A DNA stretch of 64,000 nt from Escherichia coli (GTDB lineage Bacteria > Pseudomonadota > Gammaproteobacteria > Enterobacterales > Enterobacteriaceae). Location of the stretch: the NCBI RefSeq assembly GCF_003334305.1, contig NZ_QOWS01000014.1, one strand, 5' to 3'. This document shows positions 18,476 through 64,000 of this stretch, piece after piece. Positions within the stretch are counted from its first letter, which is position 1. Every line of letters starts with the position of its first letter. The notes under the pieces were generated by a model that saw nothing but the letters and a program-made list of their open reading frames with translations, ran no database searches and was not told the DNA's origin. Made by a program: the position numbers and the translations under genes.

Positions 18476-19222
18476 ATGTTAAAAAAGATACTTTTACTGG
18501 CTCTGCTTCCTGCAATCGCCTTCGCAGAGGAACTTCCTTCCCCAGTAAAAGCGATTGAAAAACAGGGCATTACAATCATCAAAACGTTCGATGCCCCCGG
18601 AGGAATGAAAGGTTATCTCGGAAAGTATCAGGATATGGGCGTCACCATCTACCTGACTCCCGATGGTAAGCACGCTATCTCTGGTTACATGTACAACGAG
18701 AAAGGTGAAAACCTGAGTAACACACTTATCGAAAAAGAAATTTACGCACCAGCCGGACGCGAAATGTGGCAACGGATGGAACAATCCCACTGGCTCCTCG
18801 ACGGTAAAAAAGATGCGCCGGTCATTGTCTACGTGTTCACCGATCCGTTCTGCCCATATTGTAAACAGTTCTGGCAGCAGGCGCGCCCGTGGGTAGATTC
18901 TGGCAAAGTGCAATTAAGAACATTGTTGGTTGGGGTTATCAAGCCAGAAAGCCCGGCGACAGCAGCGGCAATTCTTGCCTCCAAAGATCCCGCAAAAACC
19001 TGGCAAGAATATGAATCCTCTGGTGGCAAGCTTAAGCTAAACGTGCCTGCAAACGTAAGTACAGAACAAATGAAAGTGTTAAGCGCCAACGAGAAACTCA
19101 TGGACGATCTGGGGGCAAATGTCACACCAGCTATCTATTACATGAGTAAGGAAAATACGCTGCAACAGGCCGTGGGGTTGCCCGATCAGAAAACGCTTAA
19201 TATCATTATGGGGAATAAATAA
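18476..19222 (+). CDS. dsbG: periplasmic disulfide isomerase/chaperone DsbG
   Basis: ORF 18416..19222; start trimmed to ATG at 18476 ([17 protein letters not shown] signal peptide, 248 aa); CPYC active site. Confidence 0.9.
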
Positions 19223-19234
19223 AAGATAATTCAT

Positions 19235-19270
19235 GGATGGTTGAAATACATCCCTGCTTTTCAACCATCC
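19235..19270 (+). terminator. perfect 12-bp-stem hairpin after dsbG (putative terminator, no clear U-tract)
   Basis: ggatggttgaaa...tttcaaccatcc inverted repeat ~13 bp after the dsbG stop. Confidence 0.4.
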
Positions 19271-19430
19271 TAAAAAAGCATGAATTGCTCGCTCTGCCCT
19301 AAGTGGCTATGCTATTTTAGAAAAACTTAATCCTGAGTTAAGCAAAAAAATATAATCAATAAAAATATATACGCAAAAAACATTGATTAAGTGAATATAC
19401 CATGGAAGAAAAATATAACCGGAGTAGTGT

Positions 19431-20333
19431 ATGGCCAATCTCTACGACTTGAAAAAGTTCGACTTAAACCTTCTTGTCATATTTGAGTGTATTTACCAGC
19501 ATTTAAGCATTAGCAAAGCTGCTGAATCACTATATATCACCCCATCAGCCGTGAGCCAGTCGTTACAACGCTTACGTGCGCAATTTAATGACCCTTTATT
19601 CATTCGCTCAGGAAAAGGTATCGCGCCGACGACAACAGGGTTGAATCTGCATCACCATCTTGAGAAAAACCTCAAAGGCCTTGAACAAACAATTAATATA
19701 GTCAATAAGTCCGAACTAAAGAAAAACTTTATTATCTACGGCCCTCAGCTCATTTCTTGCTCTAATAATAGTATGCTGATCCGCTGCCTACGGCAAGATG
19801 CCTCTGTCGAGATTGAGTGCCATGATATCCTCATGTCAGCAGAGAATGCTGAAGAACTGTTGGTTCACCGCAAAGCCGATCTGGTGATCACCCAAATGCC
19901 AGTGATCAGCCGTTCCGTCATTTGCATGCCATTGCATACAATTCGCAATACTCTAATTTGTAGTAATAAGCATCCGCGAATTACTGACAATAGCACTTAT
20001 GAACAAATTATGGCAGAAGAGTTCACCCAATTAATATCCAAATCAGCAGGAGTTGATGATATTCAAATGGAAATAGACGAGAAGTTTATGAATCGCAAAA
20101 TTTCATTTCGTGGTTCCTCTTTGCTGACAATCATTAATAGCATTGCAGTTACAGATTTACTGGGAATAGTCCCCTATGAACTTTATAATTCCTACCGTGA
20201 CTTTCTTAATTTAAAAGAGATAAAACTAGAACATCCGTTACCTTCAATAAAGCTTTACATTTCCTATAATAAATCTTCTTTAAATAATTTGGTGTTCTCC
20301 CGATTTATTGACCGTCTAAATGAGAGTTTTTGA
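19431..20333 (+). CDS. ybdO: LysR-family transcriptional regulator YbdO
   Basis: 300-aa ORF with N-terminal HTH (LSISKAAESLYITPSAVSQSLQRLR); markedly AT-rich coding region. Confidence 0.85.
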   Translation: MANLYDLKKFDLNLLVIFECIYQHLSISKAAESLYITPSAVSQSLQRLRAQFNDPLFIRSGKGIAPTTTGLNLHHHLEKNLKGLEQTINIVNKSELKKNFIIYGPQLISCSNNSMLIRCLRQDASVEIECHDILMSAENAEELLVHRKADLVITQMPVISRSVICMPLHTIRNTLICSNKHPRITDNSTYEQIMAEEFTQLISKSAGVDDIQMEIDEKFMNRKISFRGSSLLTIINSIAVTDLLGIVPYELYNSYRDFLNLKEIKLEHPLPSIKLYISYNKSSLNNLVFSRFIDRLNESF

Positions 20334-20479: not shown

Positions 20480-21700
20480 ATGTCTATTTATAAAATTCCT
20501 CTTCCGCTCAATATTCTGGAAGCTGCACGAGAGCGTATTACCTGGACACTCAACACCCTACCCCGCGTTTGTGTCTCATTTTCTGGCGGCAAAGACTCTG
20601 GTTTAATGCTGCATCTGACAGCCGAACTTGCCCGACAAATGGGCAAAAAAATCTGCGTTTTGTTTATCGACTGGGAGGCGCAATTCTCTTGCACCATTAA
20701 CTATGTTCAGTCCCTGCGCGAGTTGTACACCGATGTCATCGAAGAGTTTTACTGGGTTGCGCTCCCGCTTACGACGCAAAATTCCCTTTCACAATACCAA
20801 CCCGAATGGCAGTGCTGGGAACCTGATGTCGAATGGGTGCGTCAGCCCCCGCAAGATGCGATAACCGATCCTGACTTTTTCTGCTTTTACCAGCCAGGCA
20901 TGACCTTCGAACAATTTGTACGTGAGTTTGCCGAATGGTTTTCACAAAAACGTCCGGCGGCGATGATGATCGGCATCCGTGCGGATGAGTCCTACAACCG
21001 TTTTGTCGCCATCGCCAGTTTAAATAAACAACGTTTTGCCGACGATAAACCATGGACTACGGCCGCACCAGGCGGTCATAGCTGGTACATTTACCCCATT
21101 TACGACTGGAAAGTGGCTGATATCTGGACCTGGTATGCAAATCATCAAAGTCTCTGCAACCCACTGTATAACCTAATGTATCAGGCAGGCGTTCCTCTGC
21201 GTCATATGCGAATTTGCGAACCTTTTGGCCCGGAGCAACGACAAGGATTATGGCTCTATCACGTTATCGAACCGGATCGCTGGGCTGCTATGTGCGCACG
21301 AGTCAGCGGGGTAAAAAGTGGCGGCATTTACGCCGGACATGATAATCATTTCTATGGGCATCGGAAAATCCTCAAGCCAGAACATTTAGACTGGCAAGAA
21401 TATGCATTATTGCTGCTCAATAGCATGCCGGAAAAAACAGCTGAGCATTACCGCAATAAAATCGCCATTTATTTGCACTGGTATCAGAAAAAAGGCATCG
21501 AGGTTCCACAAACCCAGCAAGGGGACATTGGCGCGAAAGATATCCCCTCCTGGCGGCGGATATGCAAAGTTTTACTCAATAACGATTACTGGTGTCGGGC
21601 ATTATCATTTAGTCCTACGAAAGCGAAGAACTATCAGCGTTATAACGAACGGATAAAAGGAAAACGTCAGGAATGGGGGATACTATGCAACAACGATTAA
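20480..21700 (+). CDS. ybdN: PAPS-reductase-like (DUF3440) protein YbdN, IbrA homolog
   Basis: 406-aa ORF; N-terminal SGGKDS PP-loop motif (VCVSFSGGKDSGLMLHL). Confidence 0.85.
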   Translation: MSIYKIPLPLNILEAARERITWTLNTLPRVCVSFSGGKDSGLMLHLTAELARQMGKKICVLFIDWEAQFSCTINYVQSLRELYTDVIEEFYWVALPLTTQNSLSQYQPEWQCWEPDVEWVRQPPQDAITDPDFFCFYQPGMTFEQFVREFAEWFSQKRPAAMMIGIRADESYNRFVAIASLNKQRFADDKPWTTAAPGGHSWYIYPIYDWKVADIWTWYANHQSLCNPLYNLMYQAGVPLRHMRICEPFGPEQRQGLWLYHVIEPDRWAAMCARVSGVKSGGIYAGHDNHFYGHRKILKPEHLDWQEYALLLLNSMPEKTAEHYRNKIAIYLHWYQKKGIEVPQTQQGDIGAKDIPSWRRICKVLLNNDYWCRALSFSPTKAKNYQRYNERIKGKRQEWGILCNND

Positions 21701-22302
21701 CGCAGGATTTAACGCAATTTCTCGCCAGCTTGCCGGAAGATGATCGCATCAAAGCGATTAATGAAATCCGCATGGCGATCCATCAGGTTAGCCCCTTTCG
21801 TGAAGAGCCAGTGGATTGCGTTCTGTGGGTTAAAAACAGCCAACTTATGCCTAATGATTACAACCCAAACAACGTGGCACCACCCGAAAAAAAACTGCTG
21901 AAAAAATCCATTGAAATAGATGGTTTTACCCAACCCATTGTGGTCACGCATACGGATAAAAATGCCCTGGAAATCGTGGATGGTTTTCACCGCCATGAAA
22001 TTGGTAAAGGCTCATCATCATTAAAATTACGCTTAAAAGGTTATTTGCCGGTGACCTGTCTGGAAGGTACGCGTAATCAACGCATCGCCGCGACTATTCG
22101 TCATAATCGCGCTCGTGGACGCCATCAAATCACCGCCATGTCGGAAATCGTCCGTGAACTTAGCCAGTTGGGATGGGACGATAATAAAATTGGCAAAGAG
22201 CTAGGAATGGACAGCGACGAAGTGCTGCGCCTGAAGCAAATTAACGGCCTGCAAGAGCTGTTTGCCGACCGTCAATATTCCCGCGCCTGGACGGTTAAAT
22301 AA
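21673..22302 (+). CDS. ybdM: ParB/Srx-like nuclease-domain protein YbdM, IbrB homolog
   Basis: 209-aa ORF overlapping the ybdN 3' end by 28 bp. Confidence 0.85.
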   Translation: MGDTMQQRLTQDLTQFLASLPEDDRIKAINEIRMAIHQVSPFREEPVDCVLWVKNSQLMPNDYNPNNVAPPEKKLLKKSIEIDGFTQPIVVTHTDKNALEIVDGFHRHEIGKGSSSLKLRLKGYLPVTCLEGTRNQRIAATIRHNRARGRHQITAMSEIVRELSQLGWDDNKIGKELGMDSDEVLRLKQINGLQELFADRQYSRAWTVK

Positions 22303-23463
22303 CTAAAGCTGGCGCAGGCGTTCAGCTGCTGCCAGCAACGTCGATTCCTTCTTGGCAAAACAGAGACGAATCAGTTTATGTGGGAAGGGATCGGCGCAAA
22401 ACACCGACAGCGGAATCGCCGCTACGCCGTGCTCCTGCGTCAGCCACTGGCAAAACTCAACATCATCCAGGGTAGAAACCTCGCTGTAATCCACCAGCAA
22501 AAAGTATGTACCTTCACACGGTAAAATCTCCAGCCGGCTTTCATTTAAAGCATTCACCAGAATATCGCGCTTCTGGCGATAAAAGTCCGGTAACGCAAGA
22601 TAATGCTCAGGTTCTGCACGTAGCATATCAGCAAGCGCCAGCTGTGCCGGGGTATTCACCGAAAAGGTCAGATACTGATGTACCTTGCGAATTTCGGCGC
22701 TGATGGGCGCTGGCGCAACACAATAACCCACTTTCCAGCCGGTCATATGATAGGTCTTGCCAAATGAAGAAACCGCCACTGCCCGCTCACGCAGCTGCGG
22801 ATGCGCCAGCACACTGGCATGGCCCTGTTGTGAAAAGTTGATGTGCTCGTAGACTTCATCGCTAATGACAAAAATCTCGTGCCCGGCGATCGCCTGCCAC
22901 AAAGCGGCGAAATCAGCCTGCTGCCAGACAGTTGCACTGGGGTTATGCGGAGTGTTGAGGATCACCAGTCTGGTGCGCTCGCTTAATAATGCGGCAAATT
23001 CCTGCCAGTCAACGCGAAAATGCGGTGGTTGCAGTGCCATACGCTTCACTATTCCCCCAGAAAGCGCGATGGCGGGGGAGTAACTGTCATAGCTGGGATC
23101 AAAACAAATCACTTCATCGCCATTGCGCACCAGTGCGGTAATCGCCGCGTATAACGCTTCCGTCGCCCCTGCCGTTACGGTGATATCGCTATCGGCATCT
23201 GGTTGATAGCCATACAAACGTTCCGTTTTCTGAGCAATCGCCTCGCGCAAGGCCTGCACGCCGGTCATGGGCGCGTATTGGTTTGCCCCCTGGGCAACGT
23301 GGTACGCCAGCCGCTCCTGTAAATAGCGCGGACCATCAAAATCAGGAAAGCCTTGCGACAGGTTAATCGCCTGGTGTTGCTGCGCCAGCGCGCTCATCTG
23401 GGTGAAAATAGTGGTGCCAAGTTGTGGAAGTTTGCTTTGTGGAATCAGAGGGTTATTTGTCAT
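22303..23463 (-). CDS. ybdL: PLP-dependent methionine aminotransferase YbdL
   Basis: 386-aa class-I aminotransferase ORF MTNNPLIPQSKLPQLGTTIF. Confidence 0.88.
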   Translation of the reverse strand: MTNNPLIPQSKLPQLGTTIFTQMSALAQQHQAINLSQGFPDFDGPRYLQERLAYHVAQGANQYAPMTGVQALREAIAQKTERLYGYQPDADSDITVTAGATEALYAAITALVRNGDEVICFDPSYDSYSPAIALSGGIVKRMALQPPHFRVDWQEFAALLSERTRLVILNTPHNPSATVWQQADFAALWQAIAGHEIFVISDEVYEHINFSQQGHASVLAHPQLRERAVAVSSFGKTYHMTGWKVGYCVAPAPISAEIRKVHQYLTFSVNTPAQLALADMLRAEPEHYLALPDFYRQKRDILVNALNESRLEILPCEGTYFLLVDYSEVSTLDDVEFCQWLTQEHGVAAIPLSVFCADPFPHKLIRLCFAKKESTLLAAAERLRQL

Positions 23464-27154: not shown

Positions 27155-27334
27155 AGTTGTTATCCGTGTGCGTGTCCATAGATATGTTACATTTTGTTTC
27201 TATAACATCTTTGTACGATTTAACAACACGGTAACCATGTAAATCGGAGTTGAAACCAATATTTAACTTAACAATGTTAACTCGATCACTCCGTTAACCG
27301 AGTTTTCCTGCAATCTCATTTAATTCTGTCGGGC

Positions 27335-28496
<1,162 letters not shown>

Positions 28497-28497
<1 letters not shown>

Positions 28498-29354
28498 TAT
28501 TTCACCTCGCGGGAGAGTAGCTTCCACCAGGCGTCGATGGTCGGGTTTTTCGCCAGCATGACAAAGTCGATATCACCATGCACTTTGCGCCAGCGCGCCG
28601 CCAGCGCCATCATGCGCACCGAATCCAGACCGTAGTCGATCAGGTTGTCGTCATCGAACGGTTCATCGGACTCGTCCAGCAACGGCAGGATAACCTCACG
28701 CAGCGCCGCTTTGCTGGCGGGGACAGGTGCTGGCAGTAATTCTTCAGTCATCACCACCCGGCCAGACCGCCCGGCCACATATTTCAGCGACATCAAATGC
28801 TCGTCACGGCTGAAATCGGCCAGCGCATCCGCCACCATAAACGGTTTAATATCGCGCATAAATGCGTCGGTTGCGGTGGTCATACAGCCAATGTGGGCAT
28901 ATACCCCGGTAATAATCAGCTGGTTACGTCCACTCTCTTTGAGCATTTGCTCCAGCGGAGAACGATGAAACGCGCTGTAGCGCCACTTCACCAGCACCGT
29001 GTCGTCGGCATCTGGCGTCAGGCGATCCACCACCTTTTGCTGTTCCGGCGAACGGGTCAGGCCCGGCCCCCACATATCATTCAACAGCGCCCGATCTTCA
29101 TCGCTCTGCTCTTTCGGCTGGGCGGTGTAATAAACCGGGATATTGTGCTGTTTGCAGTAGTCGCGCAGCGCAGCAATATTCGCGATCACCTGCTCCATCA
29201 TCGGGCAGTTCTCGCCCCAGAAGCTGACAAAATAGTCCTGCATATCATGGATTAACAACGCGGCACGTTGCGGTTCAAAGGCCCAGTCAACTTTATTCTT
29301 AGGGATATCGTGAGACTCCGGCAGTGCGTAAGCCTGTAATTTTGGAATAGCCAT
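28497..29354 (-). CDS. entB: isochorismatase / aryl carrier protein EntB
   Basis: 285-aa ORF MAIPKLQAYALPESHDIPKNKVDW. Confidence 0.93.
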
Positions 29355-29367
29355 CGTGTTCTCTCCT

Positions 29368-30978
29368 TCAGGCTGATGCGCGTGACGCCAGCCACTGACG
29401 TAATTGTTTTTTATCGACTTTCCCGACCGCCGTCAGCGGAAGTGAATCTACACACTCCACGCGATCCGGTAATTTAAATTCGGCAATACCCTGTTCACGC
29501 AGGAAACGACGCACCTGCACCGCGCGCAGCGGCTCTTTTACCACCAGATAAGCGCAGCTTTTTTCGCCCATCAGCTCATCTTCCATGCTCACCAGTGCGG
29601 CGTAGATCACCGCCGGGTGGCGCAGCAGCAGGTTTTCGATCTCTTCGGCAGCGATCTTCTCACCGCCACGGTTGATCTGATCTTTCTCGCGCCCCTGCAC
29701 GGTGATGTACCCCTCTGGATCAATAGAGATCAGATCGCCGGAACAGTAAAAACCGTTGGCATCAAAGGCACTGGCATTGTGCTGCGGACTTTTGTAATAA
29801 CCGCGGAAGGTGTACGGCCCGCGCGTCATCAGGCGTCCAACTTCCCCTTGCGGCAGTGGATTTCCTTCAGCATCAGCAACCCATACTTCATCGTCCGGAC
29901 ACATTGGGTAACCCTGGGTATGGATAATTTTCTCCGCGCTATCATCAAGTCGGGTGTAGTTCACCAGCCCTTCCGCCATGCCAAACACCTGCTGCAACAG
30001 GCAGCCAATCTCAGCGGGAATACGCGCCGCAAGGGTGGCTGAAAGACGTGCGCCGCCGACCTGTAACAGTTTCAGCGAGGCAAGCTGCGCCCGGCTTTCA
30101 CCTTCGGTCAGCGCCTGCAACCACAGGCTGACTGCCGGTGGCACCAGCGCGGTGACGTTCACCTGATGTTTTTCAATCAATGGGAAGCAAAGCGTGGCGC
30201 TGGGATCGGCCGCCAGAACAACCGTTCCTCCGGCAAGAAAGACGCCCAGCGATCCCGGCGAACTCATGGCGTAGTTATGAGCCGCCGGGATCGCGCACAG
30301 GTAGCGTGTCTGTTGTGTGAACTGACAAATCTCGACGCTACGACGCACGCTGTAGTAGTAGTCGTTATGAGTGCGCGGGATCAGTTTCGGTGTGCCGGTG
30401 GTGCCGCCGGAAAGCTGGAAATAGGCCACTTCATCAGCAGGTGATGGCGTGGCAGTAAAATCCTCAGCCGGATGGTTAATCGCATCCTGCAAGTTATGCT
30501 CACCGCTGTCGTTGTGCAGTTGCACCACGCGAATGGAGGAATGTTCTGTGACGAAAGTATTGAGGAAATCATCCCCGCTAAACAGCGCATGTTGGCGATC
30601 GGCAATCAGCAATGCGGGTTCAATCTGGCTGGCATAGGCGTTCAGTTCACTACGCTGATGGCTGAACAGCGCCAGCACCGGCGCAACGCCCAGTTTCAGC
30701 AGCGCGAAAAAGGTAATATACAATTCAGCGACGTTACCCAGTTGTACCAGCGCGGTTTCACCAGGTTTAATGCCCTGACGGCGTAAACTACACGCGAGGT
30801 TATCCGCCGCCTGATTCAGCTCCCGGTAACTCAACTGTCGCTCGCCGTCGATAACCGCGATGCTGTCACTCGCAGCGTGGCGAGTCAGAATGTCGGTCAG
30901 CGGCAAATCCTGCCAGTAGCCTTTTTCCCGATAGCGACGGGCAAACTCTTCCGGCCAGCGGGTGAATGGAATGCTCAT
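29368..30978 (-). CDS. entE: 2,3-dihydroxybenzoate-AMP ligase EntE
   Basis: 536-aa adenylate-forming enzyme [25 protein letters not shown]. Confidence 0.93.
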
Positions 30979-30987
30979 CCTCGCTCC

Positions 30988-32163
30988 TTAATGCAATCCA
31001 AAAACGTTCAACATGGTAGAAAGTTTGACGCCTGTTTCGCGCCACTCACCCAACGGTGACGACGCAGGCACAATCCCCGCTCCGGCAAACAGACGCACCT
31101 GATTTTCCCGCAGCTTCGCGCAGCGGATGGTCACCACCCATTCGCCGTTACCTTCGCTGTCACACCAACCCACAATGCCGCCAAACAGTTCGCGGTCGAA
31201 TGGCTCCAGTTCAGCAATAACCTGGGTCGCGGCCTGATGCGGGAAACCGCTCAGCGCGGGGGTTGGATGCAGCAGACAGGCCAGAGTCAGTGCGTTTTCT
31301 TGCGAATTCGCTTTACCTTCAAAGGGAGTTGCGAGATGCCACAGCGTCGGCGTGGTAATCAATTGTGGAGAGGAGGGAACGTGTAACTCACTACTGCGTT
31401 CGCGCAGTACCTCTTTCATCGCCTGAGTCACCAGTTCATGTTCATGGCGATCTTTTTCTGACGCCAGCAGACGATTACCCGCTTCGCGATCGAGCACTTC
31501 ATCCGGCTGACGACGCGCGGAACCGGCTAACGGAATGGAGCTAAAACGCTCGCCGTCTTTACGTAGCAGCAGTTCCGGGCTGGCCCCCAGCAGGACGCCA
31601 CCATCAGCCAGCGGGACATGGAAGTTGTAACTAACCGGGTTTTGCGCAATCAACCGTTCCAGCAATACGCCACTATCAATGGCGGCGTCAGTGGTGATAT
31701 CAATCAATCGTGACAACACCACTTTGTCGACCTGCGGCGTGGCGGTAAGTGCGGCGGCGCGGGCAACCATCTGTTCAAACGTGGTTTGTTCAGGAATTGC
31801 CTGGCGTTCCACCACGTTCAGCGACTGGCTGCGGGTAAAACGGCGGGCTGAGGTCTGTTTTTCCTGGCGGGAGAACGACTGCCAGGATTCGGGAATATAC
31901 AGCGACGAAGGCTGACGTGGATCGAAGGGAATCGCCCCGACCATCACCGGATTTTTGATGCCCTGCGCTTTGGCATCGGCAAACAGCGCGGCGAGTTTTT
32001 GCTGGAAGGGACTGTCGGGCGAATCCCCGTTCACAGCCGGTTCATCGAAGCGGGCGAAACATCCTGACGTCGTAAAACTGCGGTACGGCGACATAAAGAA
32101 AAAGCGATTGGGCGCAAGTGTTGCCATGGTCTGCTGTACTTCCTCAGCCAGTGACGTATCCAT
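30988..32163 (-). CDS. entC: isochorismate synthase EntC
   Basis: ORF 30988..32175; start trimmed to the ATG giving [24 protein letters not shown] (391 aa). Confidence 0.92.
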
Positions 32164-32176
32164 ATCATCCTCCACA

Positions 32177-32214
32177 AAATGATAAAGGCTTTAATAATGA
32201 TTATCATTTATATT
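32177..32214. promoter_or_regulatory. Fur box(es) in the entC promoter (entC-fepB divergent region)
   Basis: aaatgataaaggctttaataatgattatcatttatatt contains the Fur consensus-like core ataatgattatcatt 14-50 bp upstream of entC. Confidence 0.75.
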
Positions 32215-32369
32215 TTCGGTCGCTAACCTAAAAGCAAACGCGCACTATGTCAACTCTTGAGGTAACGCAATCTGCAACTCGGGGTTGCATCTGGTTGTGG
32301 TTACAATAAAAATGAGAAGCATTATTGATGGATTCGCATAAGCGCAATGTGATGTCCTGCGCCGTTCTG

Positions 32370-32472
32370 CCCCCTCTCCCTTCCAGGGTGAGGGCTGGGG
32401 TGAGGGTTAATGTTCGCACCAGTGCTGGCTGTTCCCCTCACCCTAACCCTCTCCCCAAAGGGGCGAGGGGAC
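32370..32472. repeat. GC-rich palindromic intergenic repeat in the fepB leader (same family as 24955..25046)
   Basis: ccccctctcccttccagggtgagggctggggtgagggtta ... cccctcaccctaaccctctccccaaaggggcgaggggac; internal inverted repeats. Confidence 0.6.
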
Positions 32473-32537
32473 GGATTGTGCGCTTTGTCGAATTTGTCAT
32501 TACGCCCTTAACCTTATTAATAACAGGAAGCTGATTT

Positions 32538-33494
32538 GTGAGACTCGCCCCGCTCTACCGCAACGCCCTTCTATTAACAGGACTTTTACTTTCAGGAATA
32601 GCCGCAGTTCAGGCCGCTGACTGGCCGCGTCAGATTACTGACAGCCGTGGCACACATACACTGGAAAGCCAGCCGCAGCGTATTGTTTCCACCAGCGTCA
32701 CCCTGACCGGCTCACTGCTGGCGATTGATGCTCCGGTGATCGCCAGCGGCGCGACCACGCCGAATAACCGCGTCGCGGATGACCAGGGCTTTTTACGCCA
32801 GTGGAGCAAGGTGGCGAAAGAACGCAAACTGCAACGGCTCTATATCGGCGAACCGAGCGCCGAAGCCGTTGCCGCGCAAATGCCGGATCTGATTTTAATT
32901 AGCGCAACCGGCGGGGATTCGGCGCTGGCACTGTATGATCAGCTTTCCACCATCGCCCCGACATTAATCATCAATTACGACGACAAAAGCTGGCAGTCGC
33001 TGTTAACGCAGCTTGGCGAAATTACCGGGCATGAGAAACAAGCGGCAGAGCGGATTGCACAGTTTGATAAGCAACTGGCAGCGGCGAAAGAGCAAATCAA
33101 ATTACCGCCGCAGCCGGTCACTGCCATTGTCTATACCGCCGCTGCACACAGTGCCAATCTCTGGACGCCGGAATCAGCACAAGGGCAGATGCTGGAACAA
33201 CTCGGCTTTACGCTGGCGAAGTTGCCCGCAGGGTTAAACGCCAGCCAAAGCCAGGGCAAACGCCATGACATCATTCAGCTTGGTGGGGAAAATCTGGCTG
33301 CTGGGTTAAATGGCGAGTCACTATTCCTGTTCGCCGGTGATCAGAAAGATGCCGATGCGATTTATGCCAATCCACTGCTCGCGCACCTGCCCGCAGTACA
33401 AAACAAGCAGGTTTATGCGCTGGGAACCGAGACGTTCCGCCTGGATTACTACAGCGCCATGCAAGTGCTGGAACGACTTAAGGCGCTGTTTTAA
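32538..33494 (+). CDS. fepB: ferric enterobactin periplasmic binding protein FepB
   Basis: 318-aa ORF with GTG start, [26 protein letters not shown] signal peptide. Confidence 0.92.
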
Positions 33495-47589: not shown

Positions 47590-47710
47590 TTGACAACATC
47601 TGGTACGATTCGCCCGCAGCCATCACTGACCGCGGGCGAAAGTGTAAAGCAGGTGCCTTACCACTCTGACCTGACAACCGGATATGCGGGGATTGCTCCC
47701 CGCACAACGG

Positions 47711-47863
47711 CTACTTCTTCGGTTCGTAAGCGAGAACAGCCTTAAACTCAATATTACGTTCCTTTACGGTGAACTCACACAGCGAGTCTCCGACCAGAAG
47801 CGTAAATCCCAGTACCGTCAAACACAGCACTATGACTGCCACAAGGGCATATTTCGTCAGCAT
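47711..47863 (-). CDS. hokE: Hok-family type I toxin (copy 1)
   Basis: 50-aa [50 protein letters not shown]; the frame is open a further 33 codons upstream to an ATG at 47962 (MKPQEIF...). Confidence 0.85.
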
Positions 47864-47939
47864 GTTTATATTGCCTCCATGCGAAGAAGGGACTACCATC
47901 CGAGTTGTTGAGGCTCGGAGTGGCAGCCCCAGGATTGAT

Positions 47940-48010
47940 AGAAATATCTCCTGGGGCTTCATCTTTCCAGACCTCAGAGTTAACCTGAAACCGGAAAGCT
48001 TCAGGCACCC
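47940..48010 (+). ncRNA. candidate Sok-like antisense RNA, copy 1 (position inferred)
   Basis: placed antisense to the mok-like start/RBS region by analogy with hok/sok architecture; stem-loop cctgaaaccggaaagcttcagg on this strand; no promoter verified. Confidence 0.25.
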
Positions 48011-48213
48011 GCCGTTATCTTACCCTTCCTCAACAAAATAGCTGTTTATTTATACAGTGAATCCTGTTTCGGACTTCTGTCGGCAAAACTCATCATTGCT
48101 CTTAAAACGAAATCGCCCGCAGCCATCACTGACCGCGGGCGAAAGTGTAAAGCAGGTGCCTTACCATCCTGACCTGACAACCGGATATGCGGGGATTGCT
48201 CCCCGCACAACGG

Positions 48214-48366
48214 CTACTTCTTCGGTTCGTAAGCGAGAACAACCTTAAACTCAATATTACGTTCCTTTACGGTGAACTCACACAGCGAATCCCCGACCAG
48301 AAGCGTAAATCCCAGCACCGTTAAACACAGCACTATGACTGCCGCAAGGGCATATTTCGTCAGCAT
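48214..48366 (-). CDS. Hok-family type I toxin (copy 2)
   Basis: 50-aa [50 protein letters not shown]; 2 aa substitutions relative to copy 1 (V8A, A42V). Confidence 0.85.
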
Positions 48367-48466
48367 GTTTATATTGCCTCCATGCGAAGAAGGGACTACC
48401 ATCCAAATTGTTCAGGTTTGGGTAGGTAGCCCCAGGGTTGATAGAAATATCGTCCTGGGGCTTCAT
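48278..48466 (-). CDS. mok-like overlapping leader ORF (copy 2), out of frame with hok
   Basis: 62-codon ORF starting MKPQDD at the position homologous to the copy-1 MKPQ start, ending inside hok in another frame, as in the canonical mok/hok arrangement. Confidence 0.3.
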
Positions 48467-48514
48467 CTTTCCAGACCTCAGAGTAAACCTGAAACCGGAA
48501 AGCTTCAGGCACCC
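48444..48514 (+). ncRNA. candidate Sok-like antisense RNA, copy 2 (position inferred)
   Basis: homologous position to the copy-1 candidate. Confidence 0.2.
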
Positions 48515-48798
48515 GCAGTTATCTTACCCTTGCTTAGCAAAATAGCTGTTTATTTATACAGTAAGTCCTGTTTCGGACTTCTCACTCCCCATTTGATCAA
48601 CTGAAGCTGAACCCGTTTTTTTCTGCATGCCTCAATCGTCAAAATTCTTCGCCACCAGCCAGCCGTGCCATAACTTGTCACATTGCAAAAGTAGCCAAAT
48701 TGCTTCAGTCACCATCACCAAAAAAAGAAACATTCCAGAACTTCCGCATCTCGCCCAGCCGCTCCGACTTCTATACTGAATAGAAAACGCCAACTTAA

Positions 48799-50766: not shown

Positions 50767-51420
50767 ATGGATATCATTTCTGTCGCCTTAAAGCGTCATT
50801 CCACTAAGGCATTTGATGCCAGTAAAAAACTTACCCCGGAACAGGCCGAGCAGATCAAAACTCTCCTGCAATACAGCCCATCCAGCACCAACTCCTAGCC
50901 GTGGCATTTTATTGTTGCCAGCACGGAAGAAGGTAAAGCGCGTGTTGCCAAATCCGCTGCCGGTAATTATGTGTTCAACGAACGTAAAATACTTGATGCC
51001 TCGCACGTCGTGGTGTTCTGTGCAAAAACCGCGATGGACGATGCCTGGCTGAAGCTGGTTGTTGACCAGGAAGATGCTGATGGCCGCTTTGCCACGCCGG
51101 AAGCGAAAGCCGCGAACGATAAAGGTCGCAAGTTCTTCGCTGATATGCACCGTAAAGATCTGCATGATGATGCAGAGTGGATGGCAAAACAGGTTTATCT
51201 CAACGTCGGTAACTTCCTGCTCGGCGTGGCGGCGCTGGGTCTGGACGCGGTACCCATCGAAGGTTTTGACGCCGCCATCCTCGATGCAGAATTTGGTCTG
51301 AAAGAGAAAGGCTACACCAGTCTGGTGGTTGTTCCGGTAGGTCATCACAGCGTTGAAGATTTTAACGCTACGCTGCCGAAATCACGTCTGCCGCAAAACA
51401 TCACCTTAACCGAAGTGTAA
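50767..51420 (+). pseudogene. nfsB: oxygen-insensitive NAD(P)H nitroreductase NfsB with in-frame amber codon at codon 44
   Basis: a 218-codon frame otherwise colinear with NfsB ([43 protein letters not shown] - TAG - [16 protein letters not shown]...NITLTEV); TAG at 50896..50898 where Gln (CAG) is expected. Confidence 0.85.
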
Positions 51421-60609: not shown

Positions 60610-61293
60610 ATGAAACTGTTGATTGTCGAAGATGAAAAGAAAACCGGAGAATACTTGACCAAAGGGTTAACCGAAGCCGGTTTTGTGGTCGATTTGGCCG
60701 ACAACGGGCTGAATGGCTACCATCTGGCGATGACCGGTGATTATGATCTGATAATCCTCGATATTATGCTGCCGGACGTGAACGGCTGGGATATCGTGCG
60801 CATGTTACGCTCCGCCAATAAAGGGATGCCGATTCTGTTGCTTACCGCGCTTGGCACCATTGAACATCGCGTCAAGGGGCTGGAGTTGGGGGCAGATGAC
60901 TACCTGATGAAACCATTCGCTTTTGCTGAACTGCTGGCGCGGGTGCGCACTCTCCTGCGGCGCGGGGCGGCGGTAATTATCGAAAGTCAGTTTCAGGTTG
61001 CCGACCTGATGGTCGATCTCGTCAGCCGCAAAGTCACCCGCAGCGGCACGCGCATCACTCTGACCAGTAAAGAGTTTACTCTGCTGGAGTTTTTTCTCCG
61101 CCATCAGGGCGAAGTGCTGCCCCGCTCGCTTATCGCCTCGCAGGTGTGGGACATGAATTTCGACAGCGACACTAACGCCATTGATGTGGCGGTGAAGCGG
61201 CTACGCGGCAAAATCGACAACGACTTTGAGCCGAAGCTGATTCAGACCGTGCGCGGCGTGGGCTATATGCTTGAGGTGCCGGATGGTCAGTAA
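60610..61293 (+). CDS. cusR: copper-responsive OmpR-family response regulator CusR
   Basis: 227-aa [28 protein letters not shown]; GGAGGA RBS. Confidence 0.93.
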
Positions 61294-62731
61294 GCCATTT
61301 CAGCGCCCGTTTTCGCTGGCAACCCGTCTGACCTTTTTTATCAGCCTGGCCACCATCGCGGCGTTTTTCGCCTTTGCATGGATCATGATCCACTCAGTGA
61401 AAGTGCATTTTGCCGAGCAGGATATTAATGATTTAAAAGAAATTAGCGCCACCCTTGAACGGGTACTTAATCATCCTGACGAGACGCAAGCCCGACGCTT
61501 AATGACGCTGGAAGATATCGTCAGTGGTTATTCCAACGTGTTGATTTCCCTGGCAGATAGCCACGGCAAAACGGTGTATCACTCCCCCGGTGCGCCGGAT
61601 ATCCGCGAGTTTACGCGTGACGCCATACCCGATAAAGACGCGCGGGGCGGTGAGGTGTATCTCCTTTCCGGCCCGACGATGATGATGCCAGGCCACGGTC
61701 ACGGGCATATGGAACACAGCAACTGGCGGATGATTAACTTGCCGGTTGGCCCGTTGGTGGACGGCAAACCGATTTATACGCTCTACATCGCGCTTTCGAT
61801 CGATTTTCATCTTCATTACATAAATGATTTGATGAATAAACTTATTATGACCGCATCTGTCATCAGCATCCTGATCGTCTTTATCGTGCTATTGGCGGTA
61901 CATAAAGGTCACGCGCCGATCCGCAGCGTCAGCCGTCAAATCCAGAATATCACCTCGAAAGATCTCGACGTTCGCCTTGACCCGCAGACCGTGCCCATTG
62001 AGCTGGAACAGCTGGTACTGTCGTTCAACCATATGATCGAGCGTATTGAGGATGTCTTTACCCGCCAGTCCAATTTCTCAGCGGATATCGCTCACGAAAT
62101 TCGCACGCCGATTACCAATCTCATCACGCAAACGGAAATCGCCCTCAGCCAGTCTCGCAGCCAGAAGGAGCTGGAAGATGTGCTCTACTCTAATCTCGAA
62201 GAGCTGACGCGAATGGCGAAAATGGTCAGCGATATGCTGTTTCTCGCTCAGGCCGATAACAACCAGCTAATCCCCGAAAAGAAAATGCTCAACCTGGCGG
62301 ATGAAGTCGGCAAAGTGTTCGATTTTTTCGAGGCGTTAGCGGAAGATCGCGGCGTGGAGTTGCGGTTTGTTGGCGACAAATGTCAGGTTGCGGGCGATCC
62401 GCTGATGCTGCGTCGGGCGTTAAGCAACCTGCTTTCTAATGCCCTGCGTTATACGCCACCCAGTGAGGCTATTGTAGTGCGCTGCCAGACGGTCAATCAT
62501 CAGGTGCAAGTTTCCGTCGAAAACCCCGGTACGCCCATTGCGCCCGAGCACTTACCGCGATTGTTTGACCGTTTCTATCGCGTTGACCCTTCCCGCCAGC
62601 GAAAAGGTGAAGGTAGCGGTATTGGGCTGGCGATAGTGAAATCGATTGTTGTCGCGCATAAAGGCACGGTTGCGGTAACGTCAGATGCGCGGGGGACAAG
62701 GTTTGTGATTATGCTGCCGGAGAGAGAGTGA
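61283..62731 (+). CDS. cusS: copper/silver sensor histidine kinase CusS
   Basis: ORF 61271..62731 (track start is TTG); ATG at 61283 gives [22 protein letters not shown]; overlaps the cusR 3' end by 11 bp. Confidence 0.9.
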
Positions 62732-63467
62732 TTATTAAGTTCAAATTCAGGGCGTGGTGCATCACCTCCTGGTATTGTTGATCAACAAATTAGAGAAAAA
62801 CTTATTAAACATATGAAATATCGAAGGCTTTTATTTTTCAAAGTTTCACGAGATGTTTGTATATGAAACTTAGTTAAATCTGTGTTTCTTCCAATTGTAG
62901 ATCACAATGCCCTTTCTAAATTTTCATCGTTATAAACAAGCCATCTATCATATAAAGCAATGAATAATTTAATCGCGATTAATCATCATTAATTGTTATA
63001 TTATTCACTCAATCTATTTATCAAGTGAATTTGATAAATTCCTAATTTAAAATATCCACTATTGAGCCAGTATTTAACAACGTTAAGATGTGCAATGTGC
63101 AGATCATGTTATCAGGGTGGAGCGGTAGCATATATTTCTTATGCAATCATTCATTTTAATAATGTTAATTGGATTATTTATTGCTGTGAATAAAAATATA
63201 TTATGAATATTGGTTTAACTTTGCGTTTTTGTTACTCGTTGTGATATGCGTACCTGTCCTGAATAACGCCAAGAAACAAGAGGTTGAGCTTGTGATTATT
63301 TTTTTGACTGAACAGACACCCGTTTCTGTAAAGTAATATTTAAACAAAATTCTCACATAACCATAGCATTTTCTGTTCCTTCCCTAATAACGTCTGAAGT
63401 CGTCCCGCTTATCACATTATCCGCAGTTGTACGGTACGGATCATTATTCATTTTACCGGAGGTTGCT
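62732..63467. other. AT-rich ORF-free spacer between cusS and the vgrG-like gene
   Basis: ~735 bp of strongly AT-rich sequence with no ORF of 60 codons or more on either strand; sharp compositional contrast with flanking genes. Confidence 0.6.
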
Positions 63468-64000
63468 ATGTCAACCGGATTACGTTTCACACTGGAAGTG
63501 GACGGCCTGCCGCCGGATGCTTTTGCGGTGGTTTCCTTTCATCTGAACCAGTCACTCTCTTCGCTCTTTTCCCTCGATCTCTCCCTGGTCAGCCAGCAGT
63601 TTCTCTCCCTTGAATTTGCGCAGGTGCTGGACAAAATGGCCTACCTGACGATATGGCAGGGCGATGAAGTACAGCGCCGGGTGAAAGGCGTGGTGACCTG
63701 GTTTGAACTCGGGGAGAACGACAAAAACCAGATGCTGTACAGCATGAAGGTGCACCCGCCGCTGTGGCGTGCCGGTCTGCGCCAGAACTTCCGTATCTTC
63801 CAGAACGAGGACATCAAAAGCATCCTCGGCACGATGTTGCAGGAAAACGGGGTGACCGAATGGAGTCCGCTGTTCAGCGAGCCGCATCCTTCCCGTGAGT
63901 TTTGTGTCCAGTACGGTGAGACTGATTACGATTTCCTGTGCCGGATGGCGGCGGAGGAAGGCATCTTCTTTTATGAGGAGCACGCGCAAAAAAGTACCGA
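63468..64000 (+). CDS. vgrG: VgrG-like type VI secretion spike protein, N-terminal part only (runs off the window)
   Basis: ATG at 63468 preceded by GGAGG RBS; translation MSTGLRFTLEVDGLPPDAFAVVSFHLNQSLSSLFSLDLSLVSQQFLSLEFAQVLDK... is a typical VgrG N-terminus; not on the ORF track because there is no stop within the window. Confidence 0.75.
   Translation, partial: MSTGLRFTLEVDGLPPDAFAVVSFHLNQSLSSLFSLDLSLVSQQFLSLEFAQVLDKMAYLTIWQGDEVQRRVKGVVTWFELGENDKNQMLYSMKVHPPLWRAGLRQNFRIFQNEDIKSILGTMLQENGVTEWSPLFSEPHPSREFCVQYGETDYDFLCRMAAEEGIFFYEEHAQKST

Follow-up and report, generated by a model that had tools for sequence, protein, structure and literature searches.

The vgrG start at the window edge

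The window, i.e., the whole 64,000-nucleotide stretch of Escherichia coli DNA analysed here, runs at its 3' end from cusS across an AT-rich leader and into the 5' part of a vgrG gene, with the following features, given in order of position:

61283-62731, plus strand: cusS, the core gene that borders the island (annotated at 18552-20000 of the strain A7 locus, L003)
62705-62731, plus strand: left junction of the island, from an alignment of K-12, the window and strain E29, and common to O157 Sakai
62732-63467, plus strand: AT-rich untranslated leader, 31.7% GC against 52% for the whole window
63458-63462, plus strand: Shine-Dalgarno GGAGG, 5 bases 5' of the ATG, read directly from the sequence
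63468-64000, plus strand: vgrG (tssI), 5' end with the first 177 of 633 codons, including a gp27-like (Phage_GPD) domain
63983-63989, plus strand: four clustered substitutions relative to strain A7 (mismatch positions), where a paralog-like vgrG tract starts

The vgrG start codon is the ATG at 63468, from which 177 codons run without a stop up to the end of the window, and the first 533 bp of the island (63468-64000) are all that the window contains. A preliminary description of this DNA had reported an ORF with a strong ribosome-binding site and a textbook VgrG N-terminus that runs out of the window at this point, and both parts of that claim are borne out: GGAGG lies at the expected place, and the Pfam family Phage_GPD matches residues 29-174 of the 177-aa product (E = 5.1e-41, window translation). 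The annotated 633-aa VgrG of strain E29 starts with exactly these 177 residues, from which the VgrG of strain A7 differs at one position and that of O157 Sakai (ECs_0607) at four. The full-length E29-type protein, whose first 177 aa are those of the window, scores 626 bits against TIGR03361 (cut-off 186) and 442 bits against TIGR01646 (cut-off 122), and in the PDB it matches the VgrG1 structures 4MTK and 4UHV (E ~ 1e-94). Judged by sequence, the ORF at the window end is a genuine T6SS spike gene (vgrG), and very probably the start of vgrG1 (vgrGO1), the spike gene of an orphan T6SS effector island between cusS and nfrB.

An alignment with K-12 and E29 puts the left border at ~62705: from there on, in the final ~8 codons of cusS, the window no longer follows K-12, and these codons come from island DNA, the last ten protein letters of CusS in the window standing where K-12 has ...RFVITLPA*. 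This insertion junction in the cusS 3' end, which assigns the window to the cusS-nfrB island, is identical in E29 and Sakai. The cusS stop ends at 62731 and 736 bp separate cusS from vgrG, in agreement with the 0.7 kb first estimated; the adjacency of nfrB and cusS in K-12, given in the preliminary description, also proved correct, the two genes lying 149 bp apart in MG1655. Whereas the left junction was read in the window, the right one was read only in relatives: in E29, K-12 identity returns ~130 bp upstream of nfrB, right after ISEc1, and the island measures ~10.9 kb, in place of ~25 bp of K-12 sequence.

The vgrG promoter presumably sits in the 736-bp leader. A promoter consensus scan of the leader returned three promoter-like sites against 3.8 expected, i.e., chance level, a terminator scan of the same segment found none, and an Rfam scan of positions 62000-64000 (E <= 1) gave no family match and two sub-threshold chance hits. 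The leader is a predicted H-NS target, and its AT-richness makes silencing plausible. In O157 Sakai, ~16 unrelated bases replace ~158 bp of the leader (window 62755-62912), a length difference of ~143 bp.

Content and frequency of the cusS-nfrB island

No exact match to the window was found among 5426 complete E. coli genomes, and the content downstream of the window was read from five relatives, namely E29, A7, H15, A28 and O157:H7 Sakai. Strain A7 (NZ_CP028767.1) has the closest backbone and departs from the final 21,269 bp of the window at 6 positions, while E29 gives the best match to the last 1269 bp (1 mismatch) but has diverged further in its backbone (99.3% identity).

All five relatives show one gene order: cusS, vgrG, a DcrB-related gene, an Rhs gene, small ORFs, ISEc1 and nfrB. 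In each of them vgrG is full-length (1902 bp, 633 aa) and directly followed by the DcrB-related gene, the 153-aa product of which belongs to Pfam DcrB (a family once named DUF1795; E = 1.7e-27) and matches the chaperones EagT6 and PA0094 in the PDB (E = 1e-5). The Rhs protein begins with a class I prePAAR (prePAAR_I), a split PAAR_motif and DUF6531, and continues with YD repeats and the Rhs core; its gene is intact in H15, E29 and Sakai (1599-1616 aa) and annotated as frameshifted in A7 and A28. This ~1600-aa Rhs gene is followed by a small ORF or a pair of them and, in some cases, by displaced Rhs fragments with small ORFs of their own. As anticipated in the preliminary description, vgrG thus heads a toxin/immunity cassette in these relatives, comprising a chaperone, a PAAR-Rhs toxin and immunity genes. 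Among the downstream features that it had listed, PAAR/Rhs and the immunity ORFs are there, but the adaptor is of the DcrB/DUF1795 (Eag) kind and not DUF4123 or DUF2345. A C-terminal extension of VgrG was also on that list, and a toxic one is absent from the full-length relative, which consists of gp27-like, gp5-like and short beta-helical C-terminal parts, its last 73 residues (561-633) matching PDB 3WIT, the C-terminal domain of the O157 VgrG1. Beyond the island, the phage N4 adsorption / c-di-GMP-activated glycosyltransferase gene nfrB carries a pseudogene annotation in the two nearest genomes, with an internal stop in A7 (L003 30613-32850) and a frameshift in E29 (L001 30954-33153).

The cusS-flanking content was compared across the 5426 complete genomes, as the preliminary description had advised. 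The leader with the vgrG 5' end (at least 80% coverage) occurs in 2391 of them (~44%) and the uninterrupted K-12-type cusS-nfrB junction, i.e., the empty site, in 2327, which describes a common presence/absence polymorphism rather than something peculiar to this strain. Likewise, eagR with the rhs 5' segment (at least 80% coverage) was detected in 2141 genomes, with a median of one place per genome. The view that the strain carries different, probably acquired DNA next to cusS therefore holds in so far as this is an accessory island that K-12 lacks, but not as a distinction of the strain.

The feature is indeed ordinary and already known, being neither new nor strain-specific. In the survey of Jackson et al. 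(2009; PMC2935791), the 11 Rhs positions conserved in E. coli include nfrB/cusS as position 4, the sole one with a clade IV core. The flanking genes are the same here, and the displaced downstream tips fit the C-terminal displacement model of that study; the survey covered 20 strains, whereas the present frequency comes from 5426 genomes, and there is no other substantive difference. In EHEC EDL933/Sakai, the genes are named vgrG1 (z0707/ECs_0607), eagR (z0706/ECs_0606) and rhsF (z0705/ECs_0605; PMC7216683 among the sources), and a displaced metallopeptidase-4 fragment is rhsG (z0702). The Sakai order, cusS (ECs_0608), vgrG (ECs_0607), ECs_0606, Rhs (ECs_0605), an Rhs fragment, ISEc1 and nfrB, shares with the other relatives the site, the cusS 3'-end junction and the succession of genes through ISEc1 and nfrB. 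The E29 VgrG, equal to the window over 177 residues, is 97% identical to the Sakai VgrG over 633 aa; besides the leader length, the differences from the O157 island are that the C-terminal Rhs tips vary between strains and that the window vgrG takes a paralog-type central tract from 63983 on.

Functional data on such modules come from Ma et al. (2017; Environ Microbiol 19:345), who according to later accounts (PMC6730261, PMC7216683, bioRxiv 10.1101/2024.03.05.583533) found vgrGO1 and eagR to be necessary for delivering Rhs-CT toxins; these toxins are described as including restriction-endonuclease-3 type, MafB19 deaminase, AHH and MTPase4 (PMC6730261, bioRxiv 10.1101/2024.03.05.583533). As summarized there, the modules likewise consist of vgrG, then a DUF1795 eagR, then a PAAR-Rhs gene with interchangeable C-terminal toxins, and the experimentally confirmed Rhs-CT3 is of the same domain class as the Tox-REase-3 tip of E29. 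That vgrGO1 is the cusS-locus vgrG is indicated indirectly, by the shared architecture, by the 98-99% identity to VgrGO1 that the preprint gives for the protein of its 'vgrG1' island (bioRxiv 10.1101/2024.03.05.583533), and by the median of one eagR-rhs place per genome. As for the apparatus, the published sources disagree: O157 VgrGs are said to resemble T6SS-2 VgrGs (PMC7216683), whereas the preprint instead credits VgrGO1 to T6SS1 (bioRxiv 10.1101/2024.03.05.583533).

At larger distance, the island of the relatives resembles effectors with a class I prePAAR and an Eag chaperone (EagT6-Tse6 of Pseudomonas and Rhs effectors, e.g., Serratia Rhs1 and P. protegens RhsA), with which it has in common the prePAAR, the split PAAR, the Rhs cage and, immediately upstream, a gene for a DUF1795 chaperone. 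The sequence similarity is only distant (the chaperone matches EagT6 at E = 1e-5), and we deal here with an orphan island, not a core cluster.

Rhs cargo, core T6SS and the mosaic vgrG

The variable C-terminal toxin starts after the DPxGL core boundary. In E29 this tip is a Tox-REase-3 domain (E = 6e-36), whereas H15 and A28 share a ~140-aa tip after DPLGL, together with a 236-aa downstream ORF (H15 at L009 18560-19712; A28 segment in L010). Sequence searches of Pfam, NCBIfam and the PDB matched neither this tip nor the 236-aa ORF; the pair occurs as a single copy in 159 of the 5426 complete genomes, and it may constitute a candidate uncharacterised toxin/immunity pair. A single-sequence AlphaFold2 model of the tip was unusable (pLDDT 37). 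For E29, A7 and H15, searches with the putative immunity ORFs returned no match in NCBIfam or the PDB. Both H15 and A28 have a main rhs gene plus a displaced core fragment; in A7, the frameshifted rhs core joins a short 35-residue tip that sits on the downstream displaced fragment in H15/A28, and the main tip and the 236-aa ORF of those two strains are missing. The A7 arrangement looks like a recombinant of the kind expected under the C-terminal displacement model (Jackson et al., 2009).

In a spread sample of genomes, the annotation of the module's Rhs protein varies between restriction-endonuclease-fold toxin, zincin-like metallopeptidase toxin and generic RHS protein. Several tip classes, namely Tox-REase-3, metallopeptidase-4, MafB19 deaminase and AHH, are already characterised at the module or attributed to it, which makes the prospect of novel effectors modest. 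The initial idea that the cargo is where novel effectors are most likely was right about the variability of the tips, but has to be toned down accordingly. Since the tips vary even between near-identical strains, the cargo of the strain under study cannot be deduced from its relatives.

A complete T6SS cluster lies at 947-972 kb in A7, from the dnaQ-aspV region to fadE and ~400 kb from the cusS island. The scan for core genes, which covered the aspV-fadE region, recovered tssA-C, tssE-H and tssJ-M (tssL under the annotation icmH/DotU) with two hcp genes, and the cluster also has tagH, vasI, a 713-aa VgrG and an Rhs element. We considered Hill's RhsG element as the identity of the cusS island and set it aside, as RhsG maps near min 5, which would be the dnaQ-fadE site. 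RhsG and RhsH make up one subfamily.

The VgrG of this cluster and that of the cusS locus (A7/E29) are 93-95% identical over residues 1-529 and unrelated beyond. This agrees with a spike body common to both loci and a C-terminus specific to each, which, by analogy with established T6SS biology, would select the cognate PAAR-Rhs protein. The two paralogs also appear to have exchanged sequence. The substitutions at 63983-63989 are the sole differences between the window and A7 in that region, and they mark where the divergence of E29 from A7 begins (locus coordinates 21252 to 22569); over residues ~173-475, the E29 VgrG equals the A7 cluster VgrG wherever the A7 cusS-locus VgrG deviates from the cluster copy. 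This mosaic tract suggests gene conversion between vgrG paralogs. Given such a paralog-type tract, the 177 residues of the window cannot by themselves tell which VgrG is encoded, and it is the flanking cusS and leader that do.

A mechanism can be proposed from the established biology of the VgrG, EagR and PAAR-Rhs families. Going by the relatives, the island would encode the 633-aa VgrG, EagR, a ~1600-aa class I prePAAR-PAAR-Rhs protein and a small cognate immunity protein, and the immunity gene would often be followed by displaced Rhs-tip/immunity modules, then ISEc1 (H-repeat) and nfrB. The YD-repeat cage of Rhs would enclose the variable C-terminal toxin, EagR would shield or stabilise the N-terminal transmembrane helices of Rhs, and the PAAR domain would cap the VgrG trimer and so dock the Rhs cage, with the specificity of this pairing set by the locus-specific VgrG C-terminus. 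A core T6SS from another locus would then fire the loaded spike (in A7, the nearest genome, the aspV/dnaQ-fadE cluster ~400 kb off), and the toxin tip would kill neighbours that lack the immunity protein. For the window strain, expression, secretion and cargo of the island are inferred, while the identity of the gene, the borders of the island, its architecture in relatives, its frequency and the core T6SS of the nearest genome rest on observation.

Other readings of the locus deserve mention. The ORF could be a truncated vgrG remnant that ends soon past the window edge, as the window alone ends within it and in some genomes the downstream module survives only in pieces (e.g., hits that span 4-41% of the eagR-rhs query); this is very unlikely in view of the full 1902-bp gene in five of five relatives, and of eagR with the rhs 5' end in 2141 of the 2391 junction-bearing genomes. 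Harder still to credit is a baseplate hub (gpD/gp27) of a prophage or other contractile-tail element rather than of a T6SS: the matched Pfam family is indeed named 'Phage tail baseplate hub (GPD)', but the full-length relative passes both T6SS-specific models far above their cut-offs, its best PDB matches are T6SS VgrG1 proteins, and among the neighbouring genes of the relatives there are eagR and PAAR-Rhs but none of phage type.

A more serious alternative, although we still consider it unlikely, is that the island is present but inert, either because rhs is a pseudogene or a recombinational deletion derivative or because the operon is silenced, via the AT-rich leader or post-transcriptionally, so that vgrG would be at most a spare spike. 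The leader is only 28-30% GC, A28 also has an rhs annotated as frameshifted, and the closest genome, A7, combines its frameshifted rhs with the 35-residue tip and the loss of the main tip and the 236-aa ORF. In EHEC, a 2026 study could detect neither VgrG1 nor RhsF even after the vgrG1 promoter had been swapped, and its authors propose additional negative regulation. However, rhs is intact in H15, E29 and Sakai, the A7 frameshift need not apply to the window strain since the A7 assembly has many small indels elsewhere relative to the window, and delivery that depends on vgrGO1 and eagR is credited to Ma et al. (2017) by reviews and a preprint.

With vgrG1 of the orphan effector island as the preferred reading, the window edge belongs to a published and very common E. 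coli island for interbacterial competition, and is of little consequence except for annotation. In that respect the gain is a precise call, with the boundary in the cusS stop region, vgrG1/vgrGO1 as the gene, and eagR, a PAAR-Rhs toxin, immunity genes and ISEc1 expected downstream. What novelty remains would be in the cargo beyond the window: we hold it to be improbable that the DNA past 64000 brings an uncharacterised Rhs toxin/immunity pair (e.g., of the H15/A28 type), or that the mosaic vgrG keeps the orphan spike compatible with the apparatus. If the latter were true, the gene would illustrate how orphan spikes stay compatible with the firing apparatus.

Other loci in the window

Elsewhere in the window, nfsB (50767-51420, plus strand) has an in-frame stop at codon 44 (…STNS*PW…), which is common to A7 and annotated there as an 'internal stop'. 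By its sequence, the gene for the oxygen-insensitive nitroreductase is thus present as a null allele, and lesions of this type are linked to nitrofuran resistance.

Across 42.9 kb, just 4 SNPs separate the window from A7 (L008), but there are 13 small indels between the two, all of which fall within 5.5 kb of enterobactin genes (window 27237-32771; entH/entE/entC/fepB). They comprise 8-bp and 4-bp duplications, two single-base insertions and A7 deletions of up to ~18 bp per cluster, for a net deletion in A7 relative to the window, and fepB, entE and entH are annotated as frameshifted in A7. Either the mutations cluster oddly here, or the A7 assembly has a local problem.

Finally, two hok-type (hokE/mokC) type I toxin loci lie in tandem at window positions 47610-48078 and 48113-48582, with ~95% mutual identity, and are annotated as two hokE genes in the relatives.
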